In this document: positions 4,787-23,842 of the stretch, one piece after another
Layout of the letters: each line of letters begins with the position of its first letter
Numbering within the stretch: position 1 is the first letter of the stretch
Origin: an uncultured Cytophagia bacterium
GTDB taxonomy: Bacteria; Zhuqueibacterota; Zhuqueibacteria; Oleimicrobiales; Geothermoviventaceae
Assembly (NCBI GenBank): GCA_964644845.1
Contig: CAZXXS010000078.1
Span: forward strand, 3,561 to 67,560
Reading direction: 5' to 3'
Length of the DNA stretch: 64,000 nucleotides
The notes under the pieces: model-generated
Told to the model about the DNA's origin: nothing
What the model saw: the letters and a program-made list of their open reading frames with translations, nothing else
Databases searched by the model: none
Translations under genes and position numbers: made by a program

Positions 4787-5061
4787 GATTCGCCCGCGCG
4801 GCGAGCGCGGTCCAGACCTACAGGGGAGTTCCCTTGCGCCGGGAAGCCGAGGGACGAACGTAGTCCGGGTGGCGCGCGCAGAGCGACCCGCAAAGAATTC
4901 ACGACAAAAGCCATCTTCCAAATGCACCTTGAGTAGGACCGTGGTCCAGAGTGTGCGGGCAGAGCCCGCTAAACCCTTCACACACGTGGCCGTGGCCACT
5001 GGTGTTTTTCGGTAGCGAGCAGCACTTGGGGACAGCCTGACAACTGCAAGGAGGAGGGCAG

Positions 5062-6033
5062 ATGGAATACACGCGACTGGGACGCACAGGGCTGAAAGTG
5101 AGCAGACTGTGCCTTGGCACCATGAACTTCGGTCCGAACACGAGCGAGAAGGATGCTTTTAAAATCATGGACCGAGCTCTTGAGCTCGGCATTAACTTCT
5201 TCGACACCGCTAACACGTACGGGTGGAAGAAGGGCGAGGGGATCACCGAACAGATCATCGGTCGCTGGTTGTCGCAGGGCGGTGGAAGGCGCGACCGAAT
5301 TGTGCTGGCCACCAAAGTGTACGGTGTGATGGGCGATGGGCCGAATGATCGCGGGCTCTCGGCCTACCACATCCGCAAGGCTTGTGAGGACAGCCTGCGA
5401 CGTCTTAGGACTGACCACATCGATCTGTACCAGATGCACCACATCGATCGCGACACACCTTGGGAAGAGATCTGGCAGGCCATGGAACAGCTCGTGCGCG
5501 AGGGGAAAGTCATTTACGTTGGGAGCAGCAATTTTGCGGGCTGGCACATTGCCCAGGCTCAATGTGAAGCGCAGAAGCGCCATTTCATGGGTTTGGTCTC
5601 CGAGCAGAGTTTGTACAACCTCACCAACCGGATGATCGAGCTGGAGGTAATCCCCGCGTGCCAGGCGTACGGGCTTGGCATCATCCCGTGGAGCCCACTG
5701 GCAAGTGGTCTGCTGGCGGGCTCCCTGGACAAGGTGAAAAGCGGGCGCAGGGCTGAGGAATCCACGCAGAAACGTGCCGCACAATTGCGCGATCAGCTGG
5801 GGCAATACGAGGCTCTCTGTCGTGAGCTGGGCGAAGAACCCGCGAACGTGGCACTTGCGTGGTTGCTGCACCAACCCGCCGTGACCGCACCAATCATCGG
5901 CCCTCGAACGTTGCAGCAGCTTGAGGGAGCAACGCGCGCCGTGGAAATCAAGCTCTCGGATGAGATCCTGGCCAAACTGGACAAGATTTGGCCAGGCCCC
6001 GGCGGTCCGGCACCCGAAGCCTACGCCTGGTAA
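5062..6033 (+). CDS. Aldo/keto reductase
   Basis: LGRTGLKVSRLCLGTMNFG, FFDTANTYG, VLATKVYG, IDLYQMHH, WSPLASGLL motifs; GGAGGAGG RBS. Confidence 0.93.
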   Translation: MEYTRLGRTGLKVSRLCLGTMNFGPNTSEKDAFKIMDRALELGINFFDTANTYGWKKGEGITEQIIGRWLSQGGGRRDRIVLATKVYGVMGDGPNDRGLSAYHIRKACEDSLRRLRTDHIDLYQMHHIDRDTPWEEIWQAMEQLVREGKVIYVGSSNFAGWHIAQAQCEAQKRHFMGLVSEQSLYNLTNRMIELEVIPACQAYGLGIIPWSPLASGLLAGSLDKVKSGRRAEESTQKRAAQLRDQLGQYEALCRELGEEPANVALAWLLHQPAVTAPIIGPRTLQQLEGATRAVEIKLSDEILAKLDKIWPGPGGPAPEAYAW

Positions 6034-6040
6034 GCACCCT

Positions 6041-6064
6041 ACGCCCGGTCTTCCGGGCGTTTTC
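6041..6064 (+). terminator. Rho-independent terminator after the aldo/keto reductase
   Basis: ACGCCCGG-TCTT-CCGGGCGT hairpin followed by TTTT. Confidence 0.75.
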
Positions 6065-6785
6065 TGTTCAAAGTGAGCCTTGAGCCTCCAGACCGCCCCC
6101 GGGCCAAGCAACTTTGAGTTTTCGGCCGATTGGTACCGCCGCGAGAATCCAGCATGCGGTGGACTCGTGCAACGCAAACCGGTAAGGTGCCCACCACGGA
6201 CCGGTTGAAGCCGCGTCAGGATGCTTGTGTAAGGCAGTGCTGGCTTGCTCACCTGCCGTGTCCACCGCTGCTTCAGCGAACGTCGCAGGTCAACCGTGAC
6301 AGCAGTGGATCCAACGCAAACAGCCGACCGAGGGGAGCCCCGAGACGCCGTGAGGGCGAGCTCCCAAGACCGTTCCGGTGGCGCGGACTCGGATCGCAAC
6401 GGGTTTCTGGCTGGTCTTGTCCTGGGGACCGATCTTGAAGATCAAGGCATCCCCTCTTTTCGCGTCGAGACAGAAATCTCGACCTCTCTCAAAGCCGTCC
6501 GGGACTCGATCCGTGGACCCGCGGAGCAGGTCCGCCCCGGGGAAACCACGCGAGTTTCGGCGTAAGGAATCAACCAGACGCACGGCGCGACGTGGAGTCT
6601 TCTTTGAGCTCCGGGGCCGGTGGTCCCGCTTTGCGTACAGACTGATCGACTGGCAACATGCGCTGTGGAGCACTGGGGATTGTTCAGACCAACTCCAGGC
6701 CAAACCGGGGAGCTCGCGAAAGACAAAACGCTTTGTTTGGGGCCCGCTTTTGCGTAAATTTGCCCAGAAAAACCGGAGAGCTGGC

Positions 6786-7778
6786 ATGCAGCAAGTACGC
6801 GTCGGTGTTGTCGGCGTAGGCAAGCTGGGCACCTACCACGTTCAAAACTACCTGAATATTCCGGACGCGCAGCTGGTTGGCACCTGGGACGTTGTCCCCG
6901 AGCGCATGCGCGCGGTTGAAGCGCGCTGGGGTGTGCGGAGCTACCCGTCCCTGCAGGCGCTGCTTGAAGATGTCGAAGCGGTGAGCGTGGCGGTACCGAC
7001 GACGGCGCACCGGGACGTGGCAGCGCAGGCTCTGGCTGCCGGGGTGCACTGCCTCGTGGAAAAGCCGCTGGCGTCGACCTTGGGGGAAGCGGGCGAAATC
7101 GTGCGAACCGCTGCAGACCGGGGCCTGGTACTGCACGTAGGGCATGTGGAACGCTTCAATCCTGCCATTCTTGCGCTCCGTGGAGTAGAGTTGCAACCGC
7201 GTTTCATCGAGTCGCACCGGCTTGCGCCGTTCGACCCGCGGGGTACCGATGTGCCCGTCGTCCTGGACCTGATGATTCACGACATCGACCTGATCCTCAG
7301 TTTGGTAACCTCGCCAGTACGTCGGATTGATGCCCGAGGAGTGGCGGTCGTCTCCGACGACGCCGACATCGCCAACGCCCGCCTGGAGTTCAAAGACGGC
7401 TGCGTGGCCAACGTGACAGCAAGCCGCATTTCCCAGCGGAAGATGCGCAAGCTGCGGCTTTTCCAGCGCAACGCGTACATTTCGGTAGACATGCTCCAGG
7501 GGCTAACTGAGGTTTTTCGTCTCGAAGAACACGAGGCGCCACCCCCAGACAAAGATGCCAGACTGGTTCTCGGACAGATCGACCGGGGCCAGAGGAAGCG
7601 AGCCATTTCGTACGAGCGGTTGGCCGCACCGGAAATCAACGCACTCGAAGCGGAACTCCGCGAGTTCCTGAAAGCTGTGCGTGGAGAGCCAAGTACCGGC
7701 GTAACAGGGGAGGAAGCAAAACGCGCGCTCGAAGTGGCCCTGGAAATCGAGCGGATCGTGCAGGAAACCGCCGTCTGA
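6786..7778 (+). CDS. gnnA: Gfo/Idh/MocA oxidoreductase, likely UDP-GlcNAc 3-dehydrogenase (GnnA-like)
   Basis: GVVGVGKLG Rossmann motif, LVEKP, GHVERFNPA, FIESHRLAPF and DVPVVLDLMIHDIDL; first gene of the lipid A cluster. Start moved to ATG 6786. The gnnA name rests on context. Confidence 0.75.
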   Translation: MQQVRVGVVGVGKLGTYHVQNYLNIPDAQLVGTWDVVPERMRAVEARWGVRSYPSLQALLEDVEAVSVAVPTTAHRDVAAQALAAGVHCLVEKPLASTLGEAGEIVRTAADRGLVLHVGHVERFNPAILALRGVELQPRFIESHRLAPFDPRGTDVPVVLDLMIHDIDLILSLVTSPVRRIDARGVAVVSDDADIANARLEFKDGCVANVTASRISQRKMRKLRLFQRNAYISVDMLQGLTEVFRLEEHEAPPPDKDARLVLGQIDRGQRKRAISYERLAAPEINALEAELREFLKAVRGEPSTGVTGEEAKRALEVALEIERIVQETAV

Positions 7779-7982
7779 GCGGCGGAGCTGGAGCCACCAA
7801 CTTCAAGAGCCACCTTGGGGTGGTCCGCCGGAAAGACGGGCACACCCCGGTTAGCCGCAGAACCGAAATGGAAAGACGGCTTACTCGGCCGGCAACCACG
7901 GGCACCGCTTGAGTCGCGCCAATCCGAGTATGCGAAATGCTCACGTGTCAAGTCGAAAACAAACGCCACTGGAACGGAAGGT

Positions 7983-8567
7983 ATGGCCAAGTTTGACCTT
8001 CGCGAGAAGATCTTCAACAACCGAAGCTACACACCCATTCCCCTCCTGGTTCTTGCCCTCATCCTGGCGAGACCCTCGGTCTGGTCCATTCTCGGGGGTG
8101 TGGGGTTGATGCTTGTCGGCGAGTTTTGGCGGCTCTGGGCAGTCCGCTACGCTGGAGGAGCAACCCGAACAACGTCAGGAGTCGGTGGCGACGAGCTTGT
8201 GACAGCCGGTCCGTACGCGCACCTCCGTAACCCGCTCTACCTGGGGAATCTTTTCAACGCCCTGGGCATTTGCGTGGCCGCCTGGGCGTGGATGCCCTGG
8301 ATGCTCATCGTCTGCCTTGCTTTTTTCACCGTCCAGTACGGACTCATCATCTCGCTTGAGGAGGAGTACCTCCGAGGGCGCTTCGGCGAAGCCTACAGGG
8401 CCTACGCCTCCAGTGTCCCCCGCTTCTTTCCTCGACCTCGCGCGTGGTCTGGCGCAAGTGCCCTGAACCCGCAGCCCCTCCACAGGGCCATTCGCACGGA
8501 GCGGCACACGCTCGGCTCGCTTACACTGATCACGCTGTTGATCCTGCTACGCTGGAAAGTTTTCTGA
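7983..8567 (+). CDS. ICMT/Ste14-family membrane methyltransferase (LmtA-like lipid A phosphate methyltransferase candidate)
   Basis: LVTAGPYAHLRNPLYLGN and EEEYLRGRFGEAYRAYASSVPRF motifs; ends 2 nt before lpxB. Start ATG 7983. Confidence 0.8.
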   Translation: MAKFDLREKIFNNRSYTPIPLLVLALILARPSVWSILGGVGLMLVGEFWRLWAVRYAGGATRTTSGVGGDELVTAGPYAHLRNPLYLGNLFNALGICVAAWAWMPWMLIVCLAFFTVQYGLIISLEEEYLRGRFGEAYRAYASSVPRFFPRPRAWSGASALNPQPLHRAIRTERHTLGSLTLITLLILLRWKVF

Positions 8568-8568
8568 A

Positions 8569-9732
8569 ATGGAACGCACGGTCCTGATCGTCGCTGGCGA
8601 AACGTCCGGCGACCTTCACGCAAGCCGTCTCGTGCGCGAAATGAAACGCCGATCTTCGGGGCTGCGCTTCGTTGGGATCGCCGGCCCCCGGATGCGCGCT
8701 GAAGGGGTTGAGGCGGTGTACAGGGTCGAAGCGCTGTCTTTTCTCGGGTTCGCAGAGGTGCTGCGACACCTTCCCTTCATTCGGCAGGTCTCGCGCCGGA
8801 TGACCCACCTCCTCGACGAACTGCAACCCGAATTGGTGATTTTGGTGGACTACCCCGGCTTCAACCTGCGCTTCGCCAGGCGAGCCAAGGAACGGGACAT
8901 CCCTGTGTTCTACTACATTGCCCCTCAGGTGTGGGCTTGGGGAAGCGGTAGAATCAAGAAGATGGTCGAACGCGTTGACCGCCTGGCGGTCATTCTTCCG
9001 TTTGAAGAGCACCTGTTCCGTCAGTACGGGCTGGATGCACACTTCGTGGGTCACCCACTTCTGGACCTGGCTCACGACGAAACCCCGCGCGAGCTGTTTT
9101 GTGCCCGAGCTGGGGTAAATCCGGACGCCCAACTGATTGGCTTGTTCCCTGGGAGCCGTCGGCAAGAGGTCCAGCGTCACTTGCCCGTGATGCTCGAGCT
9201 CGCTGAGCTAATCGGCGGCCAGCTACCCAACACCCGTTTCGTGGTCGCCCAAGCATCTGGTCTCGGTGAAGGTACGTACACAGCGTCGGTCAGATCCTGG
9301 CCCTCGGGTGTAAAACTGCTTCGGCAGGGGCACTACGCCTTGATGCGGCATGCTTCGGCCCTGGTGGTTGCCTCGGGTACAGCTACACTGGAAGCGGCCA
9401 TCTTCGCCACCCCGTTTGTCGTGGTGTACAAAGTGAATCCCACAACCTGGTTCATCGCAAGACGCCTGGTGAAACTGCCCTACATCGGATTGGTGAACGT
9501 GGTCGCCGGCCGTCGGGTGGTGCCGGAGCTCTTGCAACACGACTTCACCCCCGAGAATCTGGCGCAGACTGTACGAGCGCTGCTTAAAGATGAGGCGTTG
9601 CGAAACCAGATGCGCGCCAACCTTCTCGATGTGCGTCGACAACTCGGGCAACCCGGGGCAGCCGCTCGAGCCGCGGGTCTGGCCCTTGAACTTCTGTCCG
9701 GGGAAAAGGGCTCCGGGACCGCTGGGGTCTGA
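8569..9732 (+). CDS. lpxB: Lipid-A-disaccharide synthase
   Basis: IVAGETSGDLHA, ILVDYPGFNL, YYIAPQVWAWG, FVGHPL, LFPGSRRQEV, VASGTATLE motifs. Confidence 0.97.
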   Translation: MERTVLIVAGETSGDLHASRLVREMKRRSSGLRFVGIAGPRMRAEGVEAVYRVEALSFLGFAEVLRHLPFIRQVSRRMTHLLDELQPELVILVDYPGFNLRFARRAKERDIPVFYYIAPQVWAWGSGRIKKMVERVDRLAVILPFEEHLFRQYGLDAHFVGHPLLDLAHDETPRELFCARAGVNPDAQLIGLFPGSRRQEVQRHLPVMLELAELIGGQLPNTRFVVAQASGLGEGTYTASVRSWPSGVKLLRQGHYALMRHASALVVASGTATLEAAIFATPFVVVYKVNPTTWFIARRLVKLPYIGLVNVVAGRRVVPELLQHDFTPENLAQTVRALLKDEALRNQMRANLLDVRRQLGQPGAAARAAGLALELLSGEKGSGTAGV

Positions 9733-9807
9733 GACAAAAAGCGTTTGTACGAGGATCCCCGCGTTCGGGGTTACGCTCGCATTCGCCAGCACGGAGAGCG
9801 ACATCAG

Positions 9808-10470
9808 GTGAGTAGCGAGAGACGATCCGACCTGTTGTTCACGCTCGGAACGAAGTTCGCGTGGCTGCTTGTTCTCGGCCTTGGGAGATCGGCCCGCATT
9901 CGTTTCGTCGGCAGACAGAACTTGCTGCGTCTCCGCGAGGAGAACCGGCGTTTTATCCTGGCCGTGTGGCACGGGCGACTTCTGCTGCCAGTGTACCTGC
10001 ACCGAAATGAGGGCATTTGCGCCATGGTCAGCCTGCACCGGGACGGCGAGCTCATCGCTCAGACCATCCAGCGACTTGGCTACACAACGGTCCGCGGCAG
10101 CAGTACCCGAGGCGGGCGCGAAGCTTTCAACGAGATGGTGCGGGCTATTCGCGCTGGCGCCAACGCGGCCATCATCCCCGACGGCCCAACTGGCCCACGT
10201 CACCAGCTCAAACCGGGCGTACTTTTCATCGCCCAACAAACGGGCGCTGCCATTCTGCCCCTGACCTTCGCTTGCGACCGTTACATCACGTTCAACAGCT
10301 GGGACCGTTTCACACTGTGGAAACCGTTTGCCAAGTGCGTGGCCGTCTACGGTGACCCGTTCTACGTGCCGCGCACGTGGACCCTCCGTCAGGTACTTCG
10401 GGCCGGGAAAGAGCTGGAACAAAAGATGATTGAACAAGAAGCTTTCGCCGATGCACTTTTTCGAGAGTAA
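9808..10470 (+). CDS. DUF374 / LpxJ-like lipid A late acyltransferase
   Basis: ILAVWHGRLL, MVSLHRDGELIA, TVRGSSTRGG, IIPDGPTGP motifs; lies between lpxB and lpxK. Start GTG 9808 is my estimate. Confidence 0.85.
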   Translation: MSSERRSDLLFTLGTKFAWLLVLGLGRSARIRFVGRQNLLRLREENRRFILAVWHGRLLLPVYLHRNEGICAMVSLHRDGELIAQTIQRLGYTTVRGSSTRGGREAFNEMVRAIRAGANAAIIPDGPTGPRHQLKPGVLFIAQQTGAAILPLTFACDRYITFNSWDRFTLWKPFAKCVAVYGDPFYVPRTWTLRQVLRAGKELEQKMIEQEAFADALFRE

Positions 10471-11805: not shown

Positions 11806-14265
11806 TTACTTTGCCAGCGTAACTTTTTGAATTCGAACCTCGTCGCCGAGTTTCGCGCGCACCACGTAGACCCCCGAAGGGAGATTACGCCCAGCGTTGT
11901 CCTTGCCGTTCCAACGCAAAAGGTGCTGTCCGGGCGTGAACGTCTTGTCCGCGACCATTCGCACCAGGCGTCCTCGCACATCGAACACGGCCACCTGCAC
12001 GTTTCTGGCCTCAGGCCCAGGCACGCTGAGAGTCCACTGCACACTGGGATTGAACGGGTTTGGGTAGCCAGGACTCAGCGCAAACCGCAACGGCAGAGAG
12101 GAGAAGGCTGTGGCCACGCCCGTTGGCAGACGGCGCGCCACCATCAGCCGATCCAGGTAAATGGCGCCTCTCAATCTTCCGCGACACCGAAAATGGAAAC
12201 TGTCCACGTCCAGATTGGGTCCGTCAATCCTGCCGTTTCCGGTGATCCAGCCGTACACGGAGTCACGCTTCACGTCGAAGGTTACGAGCCGCCAGCCGAT
12301 CCAGTTAATCGGGATCCAGCGTGACACTTCGTAGCCGCTTTCGTTGTCATCCAGACAGAAGCGGAACTCGTTGCCGGAACCGTCCCCGAAAATGTAGACC
12401 TCCAGGACATCGCTGGGGCCGAACTTACCGGGCGTGGCCAGCGGATCGTGGATGTCGTCGAAGAAAACCCGGATAAAACCGCTTGTGTCAGCGAACTGGT
12501 ACTTGAGACGAGCTGCACCCTCGCCGAACAGAACGTGCTCGGTACTGATTTCAAAGCTCGTGGACTCCGGCACTGTGCCGCTCGTACTGCCGGACCACTC
12601 CGGATCGTGCCAGTTGGTCAGGTACTCGAAGTCGTCGAACGTCCTCAAGACGAAATTTTCGTCGGCTACGCGGAAACGCCACACCGTGTTCTCCTGCACT
12701 GGCAAGCCGGTTGTGTCGCGCAAGGTTGTGAAAGCACGCGCGATGAAGCGTCCACCGGGCTCAAAACCCTCGGTCGGCACAAACGCAACTGTGCTGCTGT
12801 CGCCGTAAACATCAAGCACCAGACTGCCCGCTACCGCGTGGCGCAGTACGTCGATCACGTTGAAAGCGTCCAGAGTCACCGTCGCGGAATCAAGAACCTT
12901 GTTGAACGCGGCGGAAACCACGCCGTTCGGACTCGGCATGGTGTCGCCGTCAGCAGGCCAGTTCCAGAACAGACGCGCTCGGCTGTTTTCCCGGCTTGCT
13001 GTTTCAAACACAAGGGCAAAGGGATCACCCGCCACGCCGTCTCCGTTTCCGTCAATCGCTCGCCCACCCAGATCTCGTGCCGTCGTATCCACGGTCACCT
13101 GGTAGAGCGTGCCGTACTGTAACAGCCCATCCGGTTTGAAGCGCAGCACCCTGCCCTGATTCAACCAGTAGAACGAACCGTTCACCGTTGGGGAGATCGA
13201 AAAAGCCGCTTCGACCGAGGGGCGGTTCATGGGCCGACTGAACTTGATGCGTACGTCTGACGTGACTGGCACACCCTCGGCGCCAGGCGTGGGACTGGTA
13301 GCCAGGACCAGTGGCGGCACATTGGAGGTGAGTCGAAAATCGCGAAAAGTAAAGGTGTCTTCAGGCACCACAACCACTGTGGTGTCGGGGTCGTAGTCTT
13401 TCCGCGAAGCAACCAGCGTGTACGTGCCGGGTTCCAGGCCGTCCCAAGCGTAGTAGCCATTCGAGTTGTCATCGGTCACGTACTGAAGACCAGCCTCCAA
13501 GAGGGACACAGTGGCTCCGTTCAGTGGTGTGTTGCTTTCGGTGTCGTAAAGGATTCCCGCCAGAGCTCCCGTAGGGATTGTTCCGGCGTCGTAGTACTCA
13601 AGGAACGAATGGTACAGGGCGCGCGCCTCGAAACGCAGGAAATCCGGGTTCTTGAGCTTGGCCTCCTCCACAGGGTTGTCGTGAAATGTAGCCTCGGACA
13701 ACTCGCCCGGCATGGTCAGATCATTCAGCACACCCAGATTCCAGCCGCCGTTGGGCCCGCCGTAGAATGACCAGTCGCCTCGGGCCATCCAGCCCGACGT
13801 ACGTAGCCCTTCGTAAATCGTGCGAGCCATGATTTCACTCATCACGTCGGCCTGTCCGGGCCACTGCGGCCCCAGCGAACTGGAGGAGGTGTGTAGTTCT
13901 TCGTAGAGCACCAGCGTAAAGCGGTGCTGACCGTTGTAGGCATTGTGGTGAATCGAGTGGAACCAGTCGACCCCGTTTCGGTTCGCGATGTCTTCCCGCT
14001 GGGACAGGGTGGGGTTGCTGTTGGTTCGCGTCAGGATCACCGTGTCGGCGCCCGCGCTGTTCAGATAGTCGCGCAGGTAAAGCGCCACCCGCAGGTTGAT
14101 CACATGCTCGTACACCCCCGTTGGACCGTGATTGGCATTCCCCGGGCCGTGCCCCGGGTCAAGGCAAAAACTCAGGCCCGAAAGATCTGGCTCGGTCGCC
14201 AGCGCCGTCGTCACCAGACCCGCAGTAATCAAAGCAAGAAGCGTTGTGGACTTCGTAAGGTGCAT
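11806..14265 (-). CDS. Secreted multidomain N-acetylmuramoyl-L-alanine amidase (Amidase_3, carboxypeptidase-regulatory-like domain, two SbsA/Big_5 Ig domains, CBM/CIA30-like domain, FlgD/T9SS-type CTD), paralog B
   Basis: Signal peptide; Zn ligands DPGHG...EHVIN...SIHHNA and catalytic ELSEATF; IKFSRPM Ig motif; YPNPFN...VFDVRGRLVR...WNGKDNAGRNLPSGVY CTD. Confidence 0.9.
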   Translation of the reverse strand: MHLTKSTTLLALITAGLVTTALATEPDLSGLSFCLDPGHGPGNANHGPTGVYEHVINLRVALYLRDYLNSAGADTVILTRTNSNPTLSQREDIANRNGVDWFHSIHHNAYNGQHRFTLVLYEELHTSSSSLGPQWPGQADVMSEIMARTIYEGLRTSGWMARGDWSFYGGPNGGWNLGVLNDLTMPGELSEATFHDNPVEEAKLKNPDFLRFEARALYHSFLEYYDAGTIPTGALAGILYDTESNTPLNGATVSLLEAGLQYVTDDNSNGYYAWDGLEPGTYTLVASRKDYDPDTTVVVVPEDTFTFRDFRLTSNVPPLVLATSPTPGAEGVPVTSDVRIKFSRPMNRPSVEAAFSISPTVNGSFYWLNQGRVLRFKPDGLLQYGTLYQVTVDTTARDLGGRAIDGNGDGVAGDPFALVFETASRENSRARLFWNWPADGDTMPSPNGVVSAAFNKVLDSATVTLDAFNVIDVLRHAVAGSLVLDVYGDSSTVAFVPTEGFEPGGRFIARAFTTLRDTTGLPVQENTVWRFRVADENFVLRTFDDFEYLTNWHDPEWSGSTSGTVPESTSFEISTEHVLFGEGAARLKYQFADTSGFIRVFFDDIHDPLATPGKFGPSDVLEVYIFGDGSGNEFRFCLDDNESGYEVSRWIPINWIGWRLVTFDVKRDSVYGWITGNGRIDGPNLDVDSFHFRCRGRLRGAIYLDRLMVARRLPTGVATAFSSLPLRFALSPGYPNPFNPSVQWTLSVPGPEARNVQVAVFDVRGRLVRMVADKTFTPGQHLLRWNGKDNAGRNLPSGVYVVRAKLGDEVRIQKVTLAK

Positions 14266-14286
14266 TCCAAGTACCTTCCAGTTCTC

Positions 14287-15237
14287 TTACTTCGCAGTCA
14301 CATCCAGTACGTAGATCGCGTTTGTAGAATCGTCGTGGAAGACCAGTCGTCGGCCATCAGGCGACCAGCAGGGGTCCATTTCCAGCATGTCCGCAGTGCG
14401 AGTCAGCTGAACGCGTTCAGAACCGTCGGGTCGCACAGCGTAAAGGTCAGAAGCCAAGTAGCGGTGGCCGTCGTCCTTCGCAACGAAGAACACAATCCAC
14501 TGCGAGTCCGGCGACCAACGTGGCCGGTTTCCAGGACCCAGGTCCACCAACGTCTTTCCGTCTGAGCTCACCACGAAAAGGTCTCCGCCAGAGACCTCAA
14601 AAACTAACAGTTGTCCGTCAGGAGACGGGCGAAGATTCAACACGTAGCCTTCGCCGTCAGCTTGGAAGAGGGGTTTCTCTCGCCCGACACGGAAAATCGC
14701 ACTCCCTTTTGCGTAGAACGTTCGTTCCGGTACCCGGGAAAGAGCTTCAACTTTGCCGTTGGAACCAACCGTCCAAGACTCGAGCTCCTCGGCGGCAAAA
14801 AGCACAACCTGATTGTCTCCCACCCAACGAGGCACCCCAGCCATCCGTTTCCGCCAGTCCGTCAGCTGAGTAACGCGTCCGGTGGCCACATCGATGATCT
14901 GGACGGCGTGTTCGCGCCTCTTGTTGCGCTCGCGACTAACCCGGCACAGAATCGCGCGACCGTCGGGCGACCAAGACATGCCAAATCCTGCCCCAAGAGC
15001 ATCGGTCAGTTGCCTGACCCCCGAACCATCCGCTGCCACAAGCCAGATGCCCTGGTAGTTCGGCCGTGTGGCAGCAATCCAGCGGCCGTCTGGGCTCCAC
15101 ACCGGGTGCGCCAGGGCTTCTCCCTCCGGGGAGAGTCTGACAGGCGGTCCAACTGCCCGCAGCTTGCCGAAAGCGTTCACGCTCAGGGCTAAACCGAGCA
15201 GAAAAACAAGAGCAGATCCCGTACGCCGAAAACTCAT
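14287..15237 (-). CDS. Exported TolB-like beta-propeller (PD40 repeats)
   Basis: Signal peptide; repeated WSPDG/PSPDG/WSPDS motifs. Confidence 0.88.
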   Translation of the reverse strand: MSFRRTGSALVFLLGLALSVNAFGKLRAVGPPVRLSPEGEALAHPVWSPDGRWIAATRPNYQGIWLVAADGSGVRQLTDALGAGFGMSWSPDGRAILCRVSRERNKRREHAVQIIDVATGRVTQLTDWRKRMAGVPRWVGDNQVVLFAAEELESWTVGSNGKVEALSRVPERTFYAKGSAIFRVGREKPLFQADGEGYVLNLRPSPDGQLLVFEVSGGDLFVVSSDGKTLVDLGPGNRPRWSPDSQWIVFFVAKDDGHRYLASDLYAVRPDGSERVQLTRTADMLEMDPCWSPDGRRLVFHDDSTNAIYVLDVTAK

Positions 15238-15881
15238 TCCAAAAACCTCCTCGAGAATGTCACACTCAGAGCCAAGAAACAGCTACGGCATCGCCTCCAG
15301 GGCGATGCGCTGTGCGCTCTTTTCTTCAGCCAGCACCCGTGGCCCCAGAGCCGCCTCCTCCGGCACAATGGAGCCCGCCCACACGGATGGCGCTGACCAC
15401 GCTCGACATCCGCCGAACCCGCTTCTCTCTAACGAAGACCGTCAGGCAGAGTTTCCCGTGCGAGCTTCCTTTATGAGCTCGCGCACACTGTCCAGCACGA
15501 CTCAAAACAACGCGCGGTTTCGCGCTCGCCCGCAGCTTGACCAAGCGTCACCCCTTGGCCGAAAAATCCTTGCGGACAACCCCTCCGCAGCCGGTGAACA
15601 TCGATCCTGCTGGCGTTGTGGGAAGCGCGAAACGAAACCAGGACCTGTCTCTTCAGGAAGTGCTGCTGACTCACCCCCTCCCGCCAGGGCGCAGGATCCT
15701 GCCAAGAAAAAGCACTGGCTCGCCACTGGCGAGCCTCTTAGCAAAACCGGGAACCAAAGAACCAAACAACTCTCCCACGAGAGTTCTTGGACCCGGCACC
15801 ATTTCCCAGAGCGAAATCAACTCAGTGCGCGACTTCACACCACCGCTCGCACAAGCCGAGATCTCCCGGTCAAACAGCCGG

Positions 15882-18356
15882 CTACCGAAGCAGGACCAGC
15901 CGTCCGATTTGAATCTGCCCACCAACGGTCAGACGGGCAAAGTAGATGCCGCTGGGTAGGTCCTGTCCACTTCCGTCGCGACCGTCCCAGGTGAAACGGT
16001 GCCAGCCTTCCGTCGTCTGGCCACGCCACAGGGTTGCCACCTGTTGACCAAGCAGGTTGATTACCTCGAGCACACCTTCACGTCCCACCGCTCCCGGTCC
16101 AATCCAAAACTTGATTTCCGTAGCGCTTCGAAAAGGGTTCGGCCAGTTGGGTGCCAACCGAAATTCTTTGGGTGCGCTCTCTCGCCGTTGGCGGTCGTGC
16201 CAGAGAACGGCTGTGGCGGGAGAACGAGCCAGTAGTACCAGGCGGTCGAATCCCAGTTCACCGGCAAGCTGCCCAGCTTGCTCAAGGCGCAACCCCAGGA
16301 AGAGCAAGCTGTCGGCATCGGCGCGCCCGTTGCCACCGGGGCCAGGAACAAGGTCCTCACCGACACACACTTCCAGCGATTTCCAGCCTGCCCAGTCGAT
16401 CTTGTTCGCTACGGAGTACTCCTCGCCGTCCAGATCCTGGAAGACCAAGCAGAGCACGTTGCCACTCTGGTCACCGCGCACGGCAACCGTCAGCATCTCA
16501 TCGCGTGCCACCTTTTCCGGAAGCCAGGCGGCCGGTTTCTCCCGGTTGATGAGCAACACGGAGCCAGGAACGTCGAAACGGTAGCGAAGCAATCCGTACA
16601 CGCTGTCACCGTACGCAGGTCCACGGACCAGCTCGAAGGCGGTACTGTCGACACAAATCGCAGAGCTGTCGCCCTCGACTTCCAGCGACCAGGCCAAGGT
16701 GTCGGCAGCAAAATCGTCCAGAATCACCGGGTACAACGGCCTGGACGAAGCGTAGAAATCCCACCGAAAGTAGTTCTCAAGCTGTCCCCCGCTCAGGTCG
16801 CTCAGATTCTTCATCACAGCGACTTTGTAGCCGAGACCCGCTTCCAGATCGCGAAGGGCAAACACAGCAAGTCTTCCGCCAACGAAGCCACGACTCGAGT
16901 CGATCATTTGCTCCGAGTACTGCACTGCCACGGGCACGCGGATGCGGCGGTGGCTCATCAGAAGCACGGCGTCGTCGGTCACAACGTGGGGATCCAGACG
17001 TTTGTTGAAAAGCACCCAGAGAATGTGCCCGGGCACAACGCCCGTGTCCTCACGTGCAGGCTCGAAGTCAATCACGGCGAGCGCAGCTGTGTCCAGCGGC
17101 GCTGTGTGAAAGCGGACTTCAAAATCCCCACCGGGCTGTCCGTCCGCGTCACCGTCCAACGGGTGCCCGTAGCGGTCCGTGCAAGCCTCCGTCAACAAAA
17201 GCCTGTACTCTGTGTCAAAAGCGAACCGCGTGCGGGGTGTAAAAACGACCTGGCGAGAATCATCGGACCATTTCCACCGGCCGTGAACCGGCGGCTCCAG
17301 GGCCAACCCCTGTTCGACCGAGAGCGGATCCATCGGACGGCTGAAACGCACGGCCAAGGAAGTTTGGACGGGGACATCCCTTGCTCCGTCCTGTGGGTAA
17401 ACGGTCTCCACAGTGGGTGGCGTCACGGGAACGAGACGGAAATCAAGGAACGCAAATTGGCCCCGGCTCACGCGCACAGTGTCCCGAGCTGGCTCGTGCA
17501 AGGAGTCGACTGCCAGAACTTCGTACAGGCCCGGGTCAAGATCCGCCAAAACGTACAATCCGTTGCCGAAATGATCGGTGGTCAACGTTGTGTCCAGAGG
17601 CATCACACGAACACTGGCTCCGTCCAGTGGCCGACCCGCGTCCATGTCCGAAACAATGCCTGCTAAGGCACCGGTTATCGGGGGTTCTTGGCCGTAGTAC
17701 TGCAGGAAGCTTTGCAGCAACGCCTTCGCTTCGAGCTGCAAGAATCCCTGGTTACGAAGTTTACGTTCTTCAACGGGGTGATCAAAAAACGTTGCTTCGG
17801 ACAGTTCGCCCGGCATGGTCAGATCGTTCAGCACGCCAAGGCGCGAAGGGATGCCGTAAAAGGTGTAGTCGCCGTACACGCGTGCCGACTCTGTTCGCAG
17901 AGCGTGGTAGATCTCCGCTGCCATGATGTGACTCATGACGTCGGCCTGGCCGGGCCACTGCGGCCGGTGATTTGCCAGCTCCTCGTAAAGCAACAGCGTG
18001 TAGCGCGCACTCCCGTGCTCTGCGTTGTGATGAATCGAATGAAACCAGTCGACACCGGCCCGGTTGGCGATGTCTTCGCGCTGGCTCAGCGACGGGTTCG
18101 TGTGAATTCGCGTGAGGATGACAGTGTCGGCCCCCGCTGCTCTCAGGTAGTCGCGAAGCTTGAGCGCTACTTGGAGGTTGATTGTGTGTTCGTGCAGGCC
18201 CGTTGGTCCCTGATTCTGATTTCCCGGACCATGCCCGGGATCCACGCAAATGCTGATGCCTTCCAGCGACTGGCCGAGACCTGCGGTTGCAGGTACAAAC
18301 AGTCCCATCCCGAGCAGAAAAGCAAGCGTACGTTTGCAAAAATCGGAACGCGGCAT
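15882..18356 (-). CDS. Secreted multidomain N-acetylmuramoyl-L-alanine amidase, paralog A (same architecture as 11806..14265)
   Basis: Signal peptide; DPGHG...EHTIN...SIHHNA...ELSEATF; VRFSRPM Ig motif; WPNPF...WDGRDGSGQDLPSGIY CTD. Confidence 0.9.
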   Translation of the reverse strand: MPRSDFCKRTLAFLLGMGLFVPATAGLGQSLEGISICVDPGHGPGNQNQGPTGLHEHTINLQVALKLRDYLRAAGADTVILTRIHTNPSLSQREDIANRAGVDWFHSIHHNAEHGSARYTLLLYEELANHRPQWPGQADVMSHIMAAEIYHALRTESARVYGDYTFYGIPSRLGVLNDLTMPGELSEATFFDHPVEERKLRNQGFLQLEAKALLQSFLQYYGQEPPITGALAGIVSDMDAGRPLDGASVRVMPLDTTLTTDHFGNGLYVLADLDPGLYEVLAVDSLHEPARDTVRVSRGQFAFLDFRLVPVTPPTVETVYPQDGARDVPVQTSLAVRFSRPMDPLSVEQGLALEPPVHGRWKWSDDSRQVVFTPRTRFAFDTEYRLLLTEACTDRYGHPLDGDADGQPGGDFEVRFHTAPLDTAALAVIDFEPAREDTGVVPGHILWVLFNKRLDPHVVTDDAVLLMSHRRIRVPVAVQYSEQMIDSSRGFVGGRLAVFALRDLEAGLGYKVAVMKNLSDLSGGQLENYFRWDFYASSRPLYPVILDDFAADTLAWSLEVEGDSSAICVDSTAFELVRGPAYGDSVYGLLRYRFDVPGSVLLINREKPAAWLPEKVARDEMLTVAVRGDQSGNVLCLVFQDLDGEEYSVANKIDWAGWKSLEVCVGEDLVPGPGGNGRADADSLLFLGLRLEQAGQLAGELGFDRLVLLARSPATAVLWHDRQRRESAPKEFRLAPNWPNPFRSATEIKFWIGPGAVGREGVLEVINLLGQQVATLWRGQTTEGWHRFTWDGRDGSGQDLPSGIYFARLTVGGQIQIGRLVLLR

Positions 18357-18828: not shown

Positions 18829-19938
18829 TCAGGGTGAGCGCAGTCCAGAAAGGTCGGTCGGCACGGTACCCTCGAGAAACTGGCGGAGCACCCGGCTCAA
18901 CACAGTGAGCGCCTCGACGCTGACGCACTCGGAGGGCGTGTGCGCCACTGCCAGTTCCCCGGCGCCCAGAATGACGCTGGGGAGACCGGCCTTCACCAGA
19001 TTTTGAGCGTCGGTCCAGGCGGACATGCCCACCAGACGCGCGGGTAAGCCTGTGGTCACCTCGTAGGCACGCACGAGTTCGCGGACCACCGCAGCCTCCG
19101 GCGACGTCACAAAAGGTGGATCGTGGTGGTGAACCTCGTACTGCGCCCCCCAGCGCTCCACAGTTGCCAGCACGCCGTCTCGCACAGCGTCGAGGCCGTG
19201 CTCGGGAAGCACGGGAAGATCGATCTGAAACGTGCAGCGATCGGGGGTAAGCTGCACATCCAGTCCCCCTTCGATCCGTCCAACGTTCACACCGAGCTGA
19301 TCAAAGCGACTGTTGCTCGAACGCCAGAAGGGTAACCGCCTAAGCTCAGCGATCAAGTCCAGGGCCTTCAGGATCGCGTTGTCTGCTTCACGGAAAGTGG
19401 CGCCGTGCGAAGCAGTTCCAGCTACGGTGACCGTCAGTTCCAGCGTACCAGCCTGTGCAACAGCGATGCCGAGATCCGTCGGCTCCAGAACCACGGCCCC
19501 TTCCAGTTGGTCCTGCCAGGGCCACCCGAATCCCTCGGAGCCCTTCGCCTCGTTCTCTTCGTCCACAAAGAAAGCCAGCGCGACCCCCACGCCCTGGCCA
19601 GCAGCTTCGAGGGCCGCCAGAAGAGCGGCAATCTGGCCCTTTGTGTCCACAACACCGCGTCCACAAGCGAGCCCGTCTTTGACCACGGCGTTGAAACCTT
19701 GTGGGTGGCCCCACACGGGGACGGTGTCCACGTGTGTGGCAATTAAGAAGCGCGAACGCCCGCGACGCGCGTACAGGTTGGGCCGTCCAGCCAACACCTC
19801 CTCCAGCTTGACCTCAAAGTGAAGCTCCTTCAGGAAGCTGGCAAGCCACAGCTGGACTTCACGCTCCTGCCCGGTCGGGCTTGGAATGCGGACGAGGTCC
19901 GTCAGCCTGCGGAGGATTCGCGCAGCATCTTGATCCAT
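18829..19938 (-). CDS. M20 family metallo-hydrolase (ArgE/DapE-like deacylase or peptidase)
   Basis: ATHVDTVP, GRGVVDTKG, VDEE, VLEPT, AHTPSE metal and catalytic motifs; start set at ATG 19938. Confidence 0.88.
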   Translation of the reverse strand: MDQDAARILRRLTDLVRIPSPTGQEREVQLWLASFLKELHFEVKLEEVLAGRPNLYARRGRSRFLIATHVDTVPVWGHPQGFNAVVKDGLACGRGVVDTKGQIAALLAALEAAGQGVGVALAFFVDEENEAKGSEGFGWPWQDQLEGAVVLEPTDLGIAVAQAGTLELTVTVAGTASHGATFREADNAILKALDLIAELRRLPFWRSSNSRFDQLGVNVGRIEGGLDVQLTPDRCTFQIDLPVLPEHGLDAVRDGVLATVERWGAQYEVHHHDPPFVTSPEAAVVRELVRAYEVTTGLPARLVGMSAWTDAQNLVKAGLPSVILGAGELAVAHTPSECVSVEALTVLSRVLRQFLEGTVPTDLSGLRSP

Positions 19939-20444
19939 TTTCCCTGCCGGCCGATCTCGCGAAAGCCGTGACGTTCGTACATGGCCCGAGCCCTGGTGTT
20001 CCCTTCGCCCACCCAAAGGATTACGCGTGGGTTTTCCCTTTCCATCGCGCGCACAGCGGTTTCAAAAAGCCGCCGTCCCACACCATGGCCACGGTAGGCA
20101 GGAACCACCACCATTTCGTGGATGTTTCCGACTTGCCCAAGCGTCTCGTCCTGCCACTTCGTGTGAGCCGAGACGAATCCCACGGGCTCACCGTCCTTGT
20201 TCCATGCCACAAAAAAGTGTGTCGGATCGCCGTAGTACAGCCAGTCCAGGTACTTCAACACGCGATCCCGATCGGTGTAAGCGTACTCCTCAAGGTCGCC
20301 GTAGGCAGCCTGGTAGATTTCCGCTAACCGGTCCCGCCACTCAAGATACTCCGCCTCGTCCTTGAACGGACGAACGGATTCCTCGCGTTTCCCCGCATCC
20401 GGCGCAGCTACTTTCGGGACTTGTCGAGTCCTGGCCACACCCAA
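19902..20444 (-). CDS. GNAT family N-acetyltransferase
   Basis: IHEMVVVPAYRGHGVGRRL acetyl-CoA motif and NTRARAMYERHGF; start uncertain. Confidence 0.88.
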   Translation of the reverse strand: MGVARTRQVPKVAAPDAGKREESVRPFKDEAEYLEWRDRLAEIYQAAYGDLEEYAYTDRDRVLKYLDWLYYGDPTHFFVAWNKDGEPVGFVSAHTKWQDETLGQVGNIHEMVVVPAYRGHGVGRRLFETAVRAMERENPRVILWVGEGNTRARAMYERHGFREIGRQGKWIKMLRESSAG

Positions 20445-22711: not shown

Positions 22712-23842
22712 ATGAACGTGTCTCGTAAGGAATTTTTGGAAATCTCCGGGCTCACGCTCGCGGGTCTCGGTTTCGGTAGGCTTCTTGGGCGCGTAAACGT
22801 TGCGAAAGCCTCCACGAAAGGCTTCACCTTGAGCTACAAGCCGATCCGCCTTGTTCTGAAACACGCCTGGACCCTCAGCCGCAACACCAGCACCTACAAG
22901 GACAACGTGTTCGTGAAGCTTGAGGCCGACGGTGAATTTGGCCTTGGCGAAGCGGCTCACAACGTTCGCTACCACGAAACGCTGCAAACCACAACGGAGA
23001 CGCTCGAGAAGGCTCGCCCCACCCTCGCAAATGCCGATCCGTGGCATTTTGTCGACACACAGCTTACCATTTTCGGGCTTGTCAAAGGCCAAAACGCCGC
23101 AAAAGCCGCCCTCGACATGGCCATGTTAGACTGGATTGGCAAGAAACTCGGTGTTCCCCTGTACCGGTTCTGGGGCCTCAATCCCAAGAAAGCACCGCAA
23201 ACCACTTTTTCAATTGGCATCGACAAGCCAGAGGTGATCAAACAAAAGGTGCGTGAAGCAGCGCCTTACCCGATTCTCAAAATCAAGATGGGCAAAGGCA
23301 ACGACGAGGAAATTCTCAAAGCCATCCGCGATGTGACGGACAAGCCGCTGCGCGTGGATGTGAACGAAGGTTGGAAAACCAGAGAAGAGGCCCTGCGCAA
23401 AATTGAGTGGCTGGCAAAAAACGGCGTGGAATTCGTGGAACAACCCATGCCGGCTGACAAGTTCGAGGATTCGGTGTGGCTAAAGGAACGCTCGCCGCTG
23501 CCCATCATTGCCGACGAATCCGTTAAGACATCGGCGGACATCCCAAAGCTCGCCGAGGCCTTCCACGGTGTGAACATCAAAGTGGACAAGGCCGGTGGAC
23601 TTCAGGAGGCGTACCGGGCCATCTGGATGGCGAAGGCCGTCGGCTTGAAGACCATGCTCGGCTGCATGATCGCCAGTTCCCTGTCCATCACCGCCGCAGC
23701 GCACCTTTCGCCGCTCGTGGACTACGCAGACCTGGACGGGAATCTGCTCATTTCGAACGACCCGTTCGAAGGCGTCAAAGTAAAGGACGGCTGGTTGATT
23801 TTGCCGGACAGACCGGGCATCGGTGTGAAGGGCTCGTTCTGA
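22712..23842 (+). CDS. Dipeptide epimerase (L-Ala-D/L-Glu epimerase, enolase superfamily) with a Tat-like signal
   Basis: KIKMG, DVNEG, EQP, DES, NIKVDK, DLDG motifs; N-terminus SRKEFL plus hydrophobic stretch and AKA site. Confidence 0.88.
   Translation: MNVSRKEFLEISGLTLAGLGFGRLLGRVNVAKASTKGFTLSYKPIRLVLKHAWTLSRNTSTYKDNVFVKLEADGEFGLGEAAHNVRYHETLQTTTETLEKARPTLANADPWHFVDTQLTIFGLVKGQNAAKAALDMAMLDWIGKKLGVPLYRFWGLNPKKAPQTTFSIGIDKPEVIKQKVREAAPYPILKIKMGKGNDEEILKAIRDVTDKPLRVDVNEGWKTREEALRKIEWLAKNGVEFVEQPMPADKFEDSVWLKERSPLPIIADESVKTSADIPKLAEAFHGVNIKVDKAGGLQEAYRAIWMAKAVGLKTMLGCMIASSLSITAAAHLSPLVDYADLDGNLLISNDPFEGVKVKDGWLILPDRPGIGVKGSF

Follow-up and report, generated by a model that had tools for sequence, protein, structure and literature searches.

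The locus described here lies in a stretch of 64,000 nucleotides (hereafter the window) from an uncultured Cytophagia bacterium of the phylum Zhuqueibacterota (contig CAZXXS010000078.1, positions 3,561 to 67,560 of the forward strand). Three open reading frames (ORFs), all on the minus strand, encode two long proteins of 819 and 824 amino acids, designated AmiA' and AmiB', which are predicted to be peptidoglycan amidases, and between them an exported β-propeller protein of 316 amino acids. These ORFs had been delineated in an original prediction made from the DNA letters, and their coordinates have been confirmed (Table 1). It has further been established that the propeller is a dedicated, obligate partner of the amidase, the two genes co-occurring and lying next to each other across the phylum of the window and beyond.

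Organization of the locus and of its proteins

AmiA' and AmiB' share the same domain order, consisting of a signal peptide, an Amidase_3 domain, a CarboxypepD_reg domain, two Big_5 domains, an unannotated β-sandwich (domain X) and a type-A C-terminal sorting domain (CTD) for the type IX system of secretion (T9SS). In profile searches, the catalytic domain matched Amidase_3 (PF01520) with 79.9 bits in AmiA' and 79.2 bits in AmiB' (cut-off 27), while CarboxypepD_reg, both Big_5 domains and FlgD_ig were matched in both proteins. The extreme C-terminus matched TIGR04183 (Por_Secre_tail) above its cut-off in AmiA' (Table 1) as well as in AmiB' (25.7 bits). Zinc ligands and catalytic glutamate, which the original prediction had called complete, do not vary in two alignments, of 12 and of 69 homologs, drawn from several phyla, and this H/E/H/E set aligns to the motifs of PDB 4rn7. 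By profile and residues, and for AmiA' also by fold, the two proteins are thus assigned to the Amidase_3 N-acetylmuramoyl-L-alanine amidases, and cleavage of the MurNAc-L-Ala bond is predicted.

End-to-end alignment of AmiA' and AmiB' gave 39% identity over the full length. The catalytic segments are nearly identical, as had been noticed at the outset, with GVLNDLTMPGELSEATF present in both proteins and 70% identity over the Amidase_3 domain. The other domains share 37% (CarboxypepD_reg), 33% (first Big_5), 24% (second Big_5), 32% (domain X) and 30% (CTD), all non-catalytic domains being therefore about equally divergent. The divergence ascribed by the original prediction to domains resembling carbohydrate-binding modules (CBMs) is hence genuine but not limited to them. 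The DGNGDG or DGDADG loop is part of a nearly invariant D405-G406..D409-G410 (D-G-x-x-D-G) motif, located where the first Big_5 domain ends.

Domain X gave no Pfam match (Lyase_N at an E-value of 0.04 only), and a profile search against the PDB returned only spirochaete FlaA sheath proteins, weakly (E 0.01-0.04). It is kept across the amidase family and is no more divergent than the immunoglobulin-like (Ig) domains. Assignment as a CBM was rejected, since no CBM homology was detectable in either search and only the β-sandwich fold class is compatible with it; the label "CBM-like" was thus a guess from fold class. The proposal that variable CBM-like modules set the target range accordingly finds no support, domain X being a family-wide module without extra divergence.

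In the AlphaFold2 (AF2) model of AmiA' (predicted local distance difference test score, pLDDT, of 92), the predicted template modeling score (pTM) of 0.63 suggests a flexible arrangement of the domains. The modeled catalytic domain superposes on CwlV (1jwq) with a template modeling (TM) score of 0.87 and a root-mean-square deviation of 2.2 A, on AmiC2 and LytH with 0.86 each, on 4rn7 with 0.84 and on CwlD with 0.80, while values for E. coli AmiA and AmiB are 0.63-0.74. As modeled, the fold resembles most closely the compact, non-autoinhibited Amidase_3 enzymes such as CwlV. The profile alignment to 4rn7 is continuous, without a large insertion, and neither this alignment nor the structural matches revealed a blocking helix of the AmiA/B/C type or a propeptide in the catalytic region, which starts about 8 residues past the predicted leader-peptidase site. 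An autoinhibited enzyme of the AmiA/B/C type was considered and rejected on account of the NCBIfam scores (AmiA, 30 bits for a cut-off of 400; AmiB, 21-28 for 532; AmiC, 12-17 for 700), of the missing AMIN domain and of the lower TM-scores (0.63-0.74, against 0.84-0.87 for compact enzymes).

The propeller ORF matches PD40 at 74.7 bits. Its AF2 model (pLDDT in Table 1), in which the fold begins near residue 40 of 316, has six recognizable PD40 motifs and 24-26 strands, consistent with six or seven blades. In Foldseek searches against the PDB, the C-terminal propellers of TolB were the best matches by E-value (8e-12), with WD40 propellers reaching higher TM-scores. The protein had been termed TolB-like, which holds for the fold but not for identity with TolB: it scores 73 bits on TIGR02800 (cut-off 343), lacks the N-terminal domain of TolB and has amidases rather than tol-pal genes as neighbors. 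No TolB was found above the cut-off in the genome of the window. Hydrophobic N-termini are present in 39 of the 41 propellers from the fetched loci, and none of about 100 propeller orthologs carries a CTD.

The same genome encodes, on contig C11, a paralogous PD40 propeller sharing 31% identity with that of the window (locus L170, genes at 4996-6732, 6944-8062 and 8756-10144). It begins 211 bp past a gene for an exported, lipoprotein-like Amidohydro_3 hydrolase and precedes a TPR protein gene, an order kept in three more genomes of the same family (G111, G042 and G010).

The description of the locus as a propeller flanked by two amidases is correct as to gene order. The three genes are, however, not evenly associated: AmiB' is set apart by an intrinsic-terminator-like hairpin and a long spacer, whereas only 21 bp separate the propeller stop from the AmiA' start. 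Alignment with a genome of the same genus (G111) and a sister contig (L001) showed that the hairpin is kept in both; the GAGGAGG ribosome-binding site 5' of the propeller is likewise kept in relatives, and the spacer is otherwise poorly conserved. Since the sister contig has just 165 bp at this position versus 644 in the window, most of the spacer is probably not a functional RNA. The conserved hairpin and the short propeller-AmiA' gap argue for separate transcription units, likely one with AmiB' only, or perhaps also the M20 and GNAT genes that lie upstream of it, and one with the propeller and AmiA'.

Table 1. Features of the locus and of the adjoining genes, numbered from the first letter of the window.
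Feature	Position	Strand	Evidence or remarks
AmiA', 819 amino acids	11806..14265	-	signal peptide, Amidase_3, CarboxypepD_reg, Big_5 x2, β-domain X, type-A T9SS CTD; AF2 pLDDT 92
AmiA' C-terminal sorting domain, residues 734-819	11809..12066	-	TIGR04183 28.4 bits (cut-off 23); FlgD_ig 33 bits
AmiA' β-sandwich domain X, residues 535-715, without family	12121..12663	-	all-β in the AF2 model
AmiA' Amidase_3 catalytic domain, residues 31-228	13582..14175	-	Zn ligands H39, E53, H106; catalytic E191
Exported PD40 β-propeller, 316 amino acids, Sec signal peptide, no CTD	14287..15237	-	PD40 profile; AF2 pLDDT 93.8
Spacer of 644 bp between AmiB' and the propeller-AmiA' unit	15238..15881	-	alignment with same-genus genome and sister contig
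Intrinsic-terminator-like hairpin GGCTCGCCAGTGGCGAGCC and T run, 3' of AmiB'	15707..15735 (hairpin 15717-15735)	-	G+C-rich
AmiB', 824 amino acids, architecture as AmiA'; old paralog of the clade with amidase-then-propeller order	15882..18356	-	
M20 deacylase, ArgE/DapE type	18829-20016	-	upstream of AmiB'
GNAT protein, overlapping the M20 gene	19902-20444	-	upstream of AmiB'
MR_MLE enzyme	22712-23842	+	a few kb upstream of AmiB', opposite strand

A two-gene cassette within and beyond the phylum

The partnership was assessed in 121 genomes of the phylum of the window by whole-genome searches (propeller at E <= 1e-25, 62 carriers); an alignment scan was swamped by the PNPF motif of the CTD, with about 8 of 80 loci being full-length. 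Both genes were found in 60 genomes, the amidase only in one, the propeller only in two and neither in 58. The propeller is thus present in 60 of the 61 amidase carriers, a co-occurrence for which Fisher's test gave p = 6e-31, uncorrected for phylogeny. A propeller gene lies directly adjacent and on the same strand for 58 of 67 amidase copies (upstream in 40, downstream in 18), and eight of the nine non-adjacent copies are on contigs without a propeller.

Forty cassette loci were taken with flanks of 8 kb on either side. The median intergenic gap is 39 bp when the propeller is upstream and 20 bp when it is downstream, and a CTD is present in all 38 propeller neighbors with a match to the catalytic domain. 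Clustering of the neighboring genes recovered the propeller in all 40 loci and the amidase-containing cluster in 38 of them, the next family occurring in at most 7. With no third conserved neighbor in these loci, only the propeller and the amidase recur, which defines a self-contained two-gene cassette.

The same adjacency has been found in at least five phyla of the Fibrobacterota-Chlorobiota-Bacteroidota (FCB) group. The pair is adjacent in Ignavibacteriota, with 4-bp overlaps in loci L118 and L119, and in a second Ignavibacteriaceae locus, as well as in cultured strains of Balneolales (Gracilimonas sp. BCB1, Rhodohalobacter sp. 8-1 and Balneola) in one metagenome-assembled genome (MAG) of Fidelibacterota, in bin522 and in the complete genome CP030158. 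The original prediction expected the propeller to co-occur with the amidases, an expectation borne out by this spread as well as by the counts within the phylum.

Zixibacteria provide an informative variation. In SM23_81, an amidase ortholog of 810 amino acids ends in an Fn3-like domain instead of the CTD and has no propeller beside it, and a second contig of Zixibacteria type likewise carries a CTD-less ortholog without an adjacent propeller. The SM23_81 propeller instead overlaps by 8 bp a different gene encoding a 659-residue protein with Amidase_3, fn3 and Por_Secre_tail domains. What the propeller follows is thus the joint presence of catalytic domain and CTD, and not the domains in between.

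The amidase architecture is shared by more than 460 database proteins, with lengths of 796-896 amino acids among the matches listed. Calditrichaeota, KSB1, Zixibacteria, Fidelibacterota and Ignavibacteria are among the names given for their sources, and the nearest named relatives of the window amidases come from MAGs labeled Calditrichaeota. They are annotated as "Ig-like domain-containing protein", "T9SS type A sorting domain-containing protein" or "hypothetical protein".

The amidase is nearly always a single-copy gene in the 61 carrier genomes, two copies being present in the genus of the window and in a few others. In a maximum-likelihood tree, AmiB' is placed (99/93 support) inside a clade in which every known gene order is amidase then propeller, and AmiA' sits in another lineage, in which the propeller comes before the amidase. 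Their position in distinct lineages makes them old paralogs, and a recent tandem duplication of the two amidases is ruled out by this tree. The window locus therefore looks like one cassette of each order type, the two sharing a single propeller.

Several further observations were made around the cassette. A protein of about 930 amino acids is encoded beside it in 7 of the 40 loci, e.g., L140:5057-7852 (genome G010), L003:12731-15562 and L117:8109-10982. No family was matched by its first 690 residues (motifs GSDTAIW, LHYHTF.WTDY.GDG and WHYMDN), after which come Golvesin_C and a CTD; an ortholog (48% identity over 838 amino acids), with an Fn3-like end, is encoded directly 3' of a CTD-less Zixibacteria amidase. 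This protein may be a third, glycan-acting partner. On the Ignavibacteria-type contigs (L118:621-6082 and L119:717-6006), the pair is preceded by a conserved trio encoding a protein of about 381-383 amino acids of no assigned function, a beta-lactamase2/Peptidase_S11-like protein of 574-583 amino acids and a further protein without assignment (785-798 amino acids). In the second Ignavibacteriaceae locus (L124:3040-5327), the amidase is split into frames of 653 and 141 amino acids, possibly by a frameshift or an assembly error, or as a pseudogene.

Likely export of the amidase and possible roles of the propeller

The genome of the window (4.6 Mb, 94% complete) encodes SprA (775 bits), PorU (879 bits) and PorV-family proteins (up to 114 bits), each scoring over its cut-off, and more than 100 of its ORFs end in the same type of CTD. 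Together with the CTDs of AmiA' and AmiB', these genes make export the likely fate of the amidases, in agreement with the CTD-directed secretion proposed originally. One of the CTD proteins of this genome, on contig C87 (L129:5367-6437), has a DUF2202 domain and is encoded next to multihaem cytochromes and a protein with an FGE-sulfatase domain.

On this basis, we tentatively favor, with a confidence that stays a little below even, an extracellular peptidoglycan amidase serving scavenging rather than killing and a periplasmic propeller serving as its transit inhibitor or holdase. Both proteins would reach the periplasm via Sec, where the amidase would fold and, having neither propeptide nor blocking helix, would be active beside the cell's own sacculus. 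The propeller, devoid of a CTD, would stay in the periplasm and bind the amidase, through its catalytic domain and/or its CTD, as a stoichiometric inhibitor or holdase. The CTD would then hand the amidase to the SprA translocon and, once outside, either free or anchored to the surface after PorU processing, the enzyme would strip stem peptides from foreign or detrital peptidoglycan, mainly for nutrient scavenging.

Several lines of evidence point to a guard of this kind. The lack of a helix or propeptide of the known types leaves the enzyme without built-in restraint and makes a periplasmic guard plausible, while the partner, without a CTD, would be left behind in the periplasm. Potempins offer an analogous solution for T9SS peptidases (PMC9890683). 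In addition, the partnership follows the CTD-bearing enzyme in Zixibacteria.

Other data weigh against this proposal. The CTD-less Zixibacteria ortholog, which likewise has to cross the periplasm or remain in it, has no propeller next to it, and in the window AmiB' appears to be transcribed separately, with a conserved terminator between it and the propeller. The paralogous propeller is syntenic with a hydrolase of an unrelated kind, Amidohydro_3, which may point to a wider role in substrate handling, and no natural propeller-amidase fusion was found among the top 150 representatives. The motor and ring of the T9SS (PorM and PorK) may moreover be divergent or missing: GldM (TIGR03517, PF12081) gave no match in this 94% complete genome, and GldK reached at most 69 bits (cut-off 350), its two weak loci encoding cytochrome-linked FGE-sulfatase proteins. 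As these models are built on Bacteroidota and no positive control gave a match with them, this result is a caveat and not a proof of absence. Finally, to our knowledge, all characterized partners of Amidase_3 enzymes are activators (EnvC/NlpD, ActH-LytH and GerS-CwlD).

This last point underlies the most serious rival, which we consider unlikely but by no means negligible, namely that the propeller is an obligatory activator or a non-catalytic subunit. It could stabilize zinc binding, open the groove or select the substrate, by analogy with the PD40 propellers which gate S9 peptidases, or it could be co-exported with the enzyme as a complex. The structures of EnvC-AmiB (PDB 8c0j), ActH-LytH (7tj4) and GerS-CwlD (7rag), all with activating partners, are among the structural matches of the catalytic domain, and LytH and CwlD are among its closest structural relatives. 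The tight translational coupling, including overlaps of 4-8 bp, would fit a stoichiometric complex, and the paralogous propeller stands beside another amide hydrolase, Amidohydro_3. However, with no CTD in any of the orthologs surveyed, the propeller would remain periplasmic while its enzyme is exported, except if it were carried out together with it, a case not known for the T9SS, and activation in the periplasm would endanger the producer's wall. The partnership is obligate, and within it the propeller may either inhibit or activate the enzyme.

The propeller could also be a cargo-specific secretion chaperone or adaptor which keeps a 90-kDa cargo transport-competent or presents its CTD, without inhibiting catalysis. 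The invariable presence of a CTD in the 38 paired amidases and the Zixibacteria propeller, associated with a CTD-bearing Amidase_3 protein and not with the more similar CTD-less ortholog, are in favor of this view. Cargo-specific T9SS accessory genes are also known for type-B CTDs (PorP/SprF-like). Type-A cargo, by contrast, is not known to need dedicated chaperones, and the more than 100 other CTD proteins of the genome have no such partner, which renders a pure chaperone improbable.

Less probable still is an amidase acting on the producer's own wall, in turnover, recycling or cell separation; the propeller would then regulate it in the periplasm, and in this lineage the CTD would have no function in export. 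The non-detection of PorK and PorM by Bacteroidota-based models would be consistent with such a role, as would the position of the pair among wall-recycling genes in Ignavibacteria and Balneolaceae (NamZ, AMIN-Amidase_3, NagB/PIG-L, MFS and beta-lactamase/S11-like). Against it, SprA, PorU, PorV and the numerous CTD ORFs argue for a working CTD pathway, and for cell division and housekeeping the genome has two further Amidase_3 ORFs, at other places, which can take on these tasks. In addition, half of the phylum lacks the cassette, which is therefore not a core wall function, and no recycling context is conserved within this phylum.

If an open amidase is exported through its CTD past the sacculus of its producer, it would be expected to act on peptidoglycan of foreign or detrital origin. 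The original prediction left scavenging and antagonism side by side; attack on foreign peptidoglycan is retained as an inference, with scavenging favored and antagonism less likely, given that the gene is mostly single-copy, vertically inherited and not diversified, that the amidase evolves at the rate of its partner and that it cannot reach the wall of intact diderm neighbors. It is accordingly very improbable that the amidases are antibacterial weapons and the propeller a classical immunity protein against attack by sister cells: although a secreted peptidoglycan hydrolase with an adjacent exported partner is typical of effector-immunity systems (PMC10933484, PMC3391265), sister cells would need no protection from a released enzyme which cannot reach intact diderm walls, amidase and partner both share about 40% identity across families, with no faster evolution of either, and no polymorphic-toxin features were seen.

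The genes surrounding the cassette bear on scavenging in certain lineages. In the Gracilimonas and Ignavibacteria loci, an MR_MLE epimerase accompanies the NamZ, amidase, NagB/PIG-L, MFS and beta-lactamase/S11-like genes mentioned above. Upstream of AmiB' in the window, the best match of the MR_MLE enzyme is the N-acetyl-D-Glu racemase DgcA, at 225 bits, short of the cut-off of 400, against 136 bits for L-Ala-D/L-Glu epimerase; with the M20 deacylase and the GNAT protein, it could form an acetylate-racemize-deacetylate route for stem-peptide D-glutamate. A DgcN-DgcA route for D-Glu use is mentioned in PMC10845958. These neighbors give some lineage-specific support for scavenging. A peptidoglycan-salvage neighborhood as a general feature was rejected for the phylum of the window, where the 40 loci have no conserved catabolic neighbor; such context is limited to some Ignavibacteria and Balneolaceae loci, plus the D-Glu-type genes in the window.

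Significance and relation to known systems

Sediments contain a large stock of organic carbon and nitrogen in the form of peptidoglycan, and the lineages carrying the cassette are abundant, mostly uncultured heterotrophs of sediments and the sea. T9SS cargo folds in the periplasm prior to export, and the propeller raises the question of how a dangerous, already folded wall hydrolase is moved past the producer's own wall. A T9SS-directed amidase spanning phyla would serve as a marker gene for the mining of peptidoglycan outside the cell. Should the propeller act as a guard, FCB bacteria would have a safe way to export a wall-degrading enzyme that is constitutively active, and thereby to exploit peptidoglycan necromass. 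If it inhibits the amidase, the propeller would represent a new class of amidase inhibitor, and if it acts as activator or subunit, a regulator of a new type for Amidase_3; the cultured carriers Rhodohalobacter sp. 8-1 and Gracilimonas sp. BCB1 make both options directly testable.

Scavenging systems of the AmiE/NagZ/NamZ type are known from Bacillus subtilis and Tannerella forsythia, in which an amidase removes the stem peptides and exo-glycosidases then digest the glycan. The cassette resembles them by the NamZ and AMIN-amidase genes beside it in Gracilimonas and an Ignavibacteria contig. These systems, however, have neither a propeller partner nor a T9SS route, and catabolic neighbors are not conserved in the phylum of the window. 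With TolB of the Tol-Pal system, the propeller shares the PD40 fold, the C-terminal domain of TolB being the top Foldseek match by E-value, but neither the N-terminal domain nor the tol-pal neighborhood.

A close parallel in gene arrangement is provided by the potempin-KLIKK pairs of Tannerella forsythia, in which a CTD-bearing T9SS hydrolase is also encoded directly beside a small exported protein without CTD (PMC9890683). Each potempin is a hydrolase-specific inhibitor of a KLIKK peptidase and is usually encoded upstream of it (PMC9890683). Potempins are, however, outer-membrane lipoproteins of 98-132 residues which inhibit peptidases in one species only (PMC9890683), whereas the partner in the cassette is a PD40 propeller of about 290 residues with a signal-peptidase-I leader, is paired with a peptidoglycan amidase and occurs in at least five phyla, its inhibitory action being proposed by analogy.

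The pairing of a peptidoglycan amidase with a periplasmic all-β protein also recalls the Tse1-Tsi1 and Tae-Tai pairs found in type VI secretion systems (T6SS), in which the β-propeller-like Tsi1 is reported to inhibit the Tse1 amidase (PMC3391265). The Tae enzymes, which are of NlpC/P60 or CHAP fold, are delivered into prey by injection, and their immunity proteins guard against sister cells; in the cassette, unlike in T6SS pairs, the route would be Sec followed by the T9SS, and any protection would be exerted in cis during transit.

By its catalytic fold, its zinc and glutamate residues and its obligatory genome-encoded partner, the amidase finally resembles AmiA/AmiB-EnvC, AmiC-NlpD, LytH-ActH and CwlD-GerS. 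The partners in these pairs (EnvC, NlpD, ActH and GerS) have LytM, TPR or LolA-like folds and activate their enzymes, which work on the wall of the producer itself, while the cassette combines a secretion CTD, a catalytic domain devoid of the AmiA/B/C blocking helix and a propeller partner. A literature search found no published description of the amidase family or of its pairing with a propeller. It is possible, if on balance doubtful, that the propeller is the first proteinaceous Amidase_3 inhibitor, conferring "transit immunity", and the first cargo-specific periplasmic guard of a T9SS, carried in a mobile two-gene cassette across Calditrichota/KSB1-like bacteria, Ignavibacteriota, Balneolales, Fidelibacterota and Zixibacteria. 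Compared with all these systems, the parts are of known kinds, and the conserved cassette, with a propeller as Amidase_3 partner, is new.

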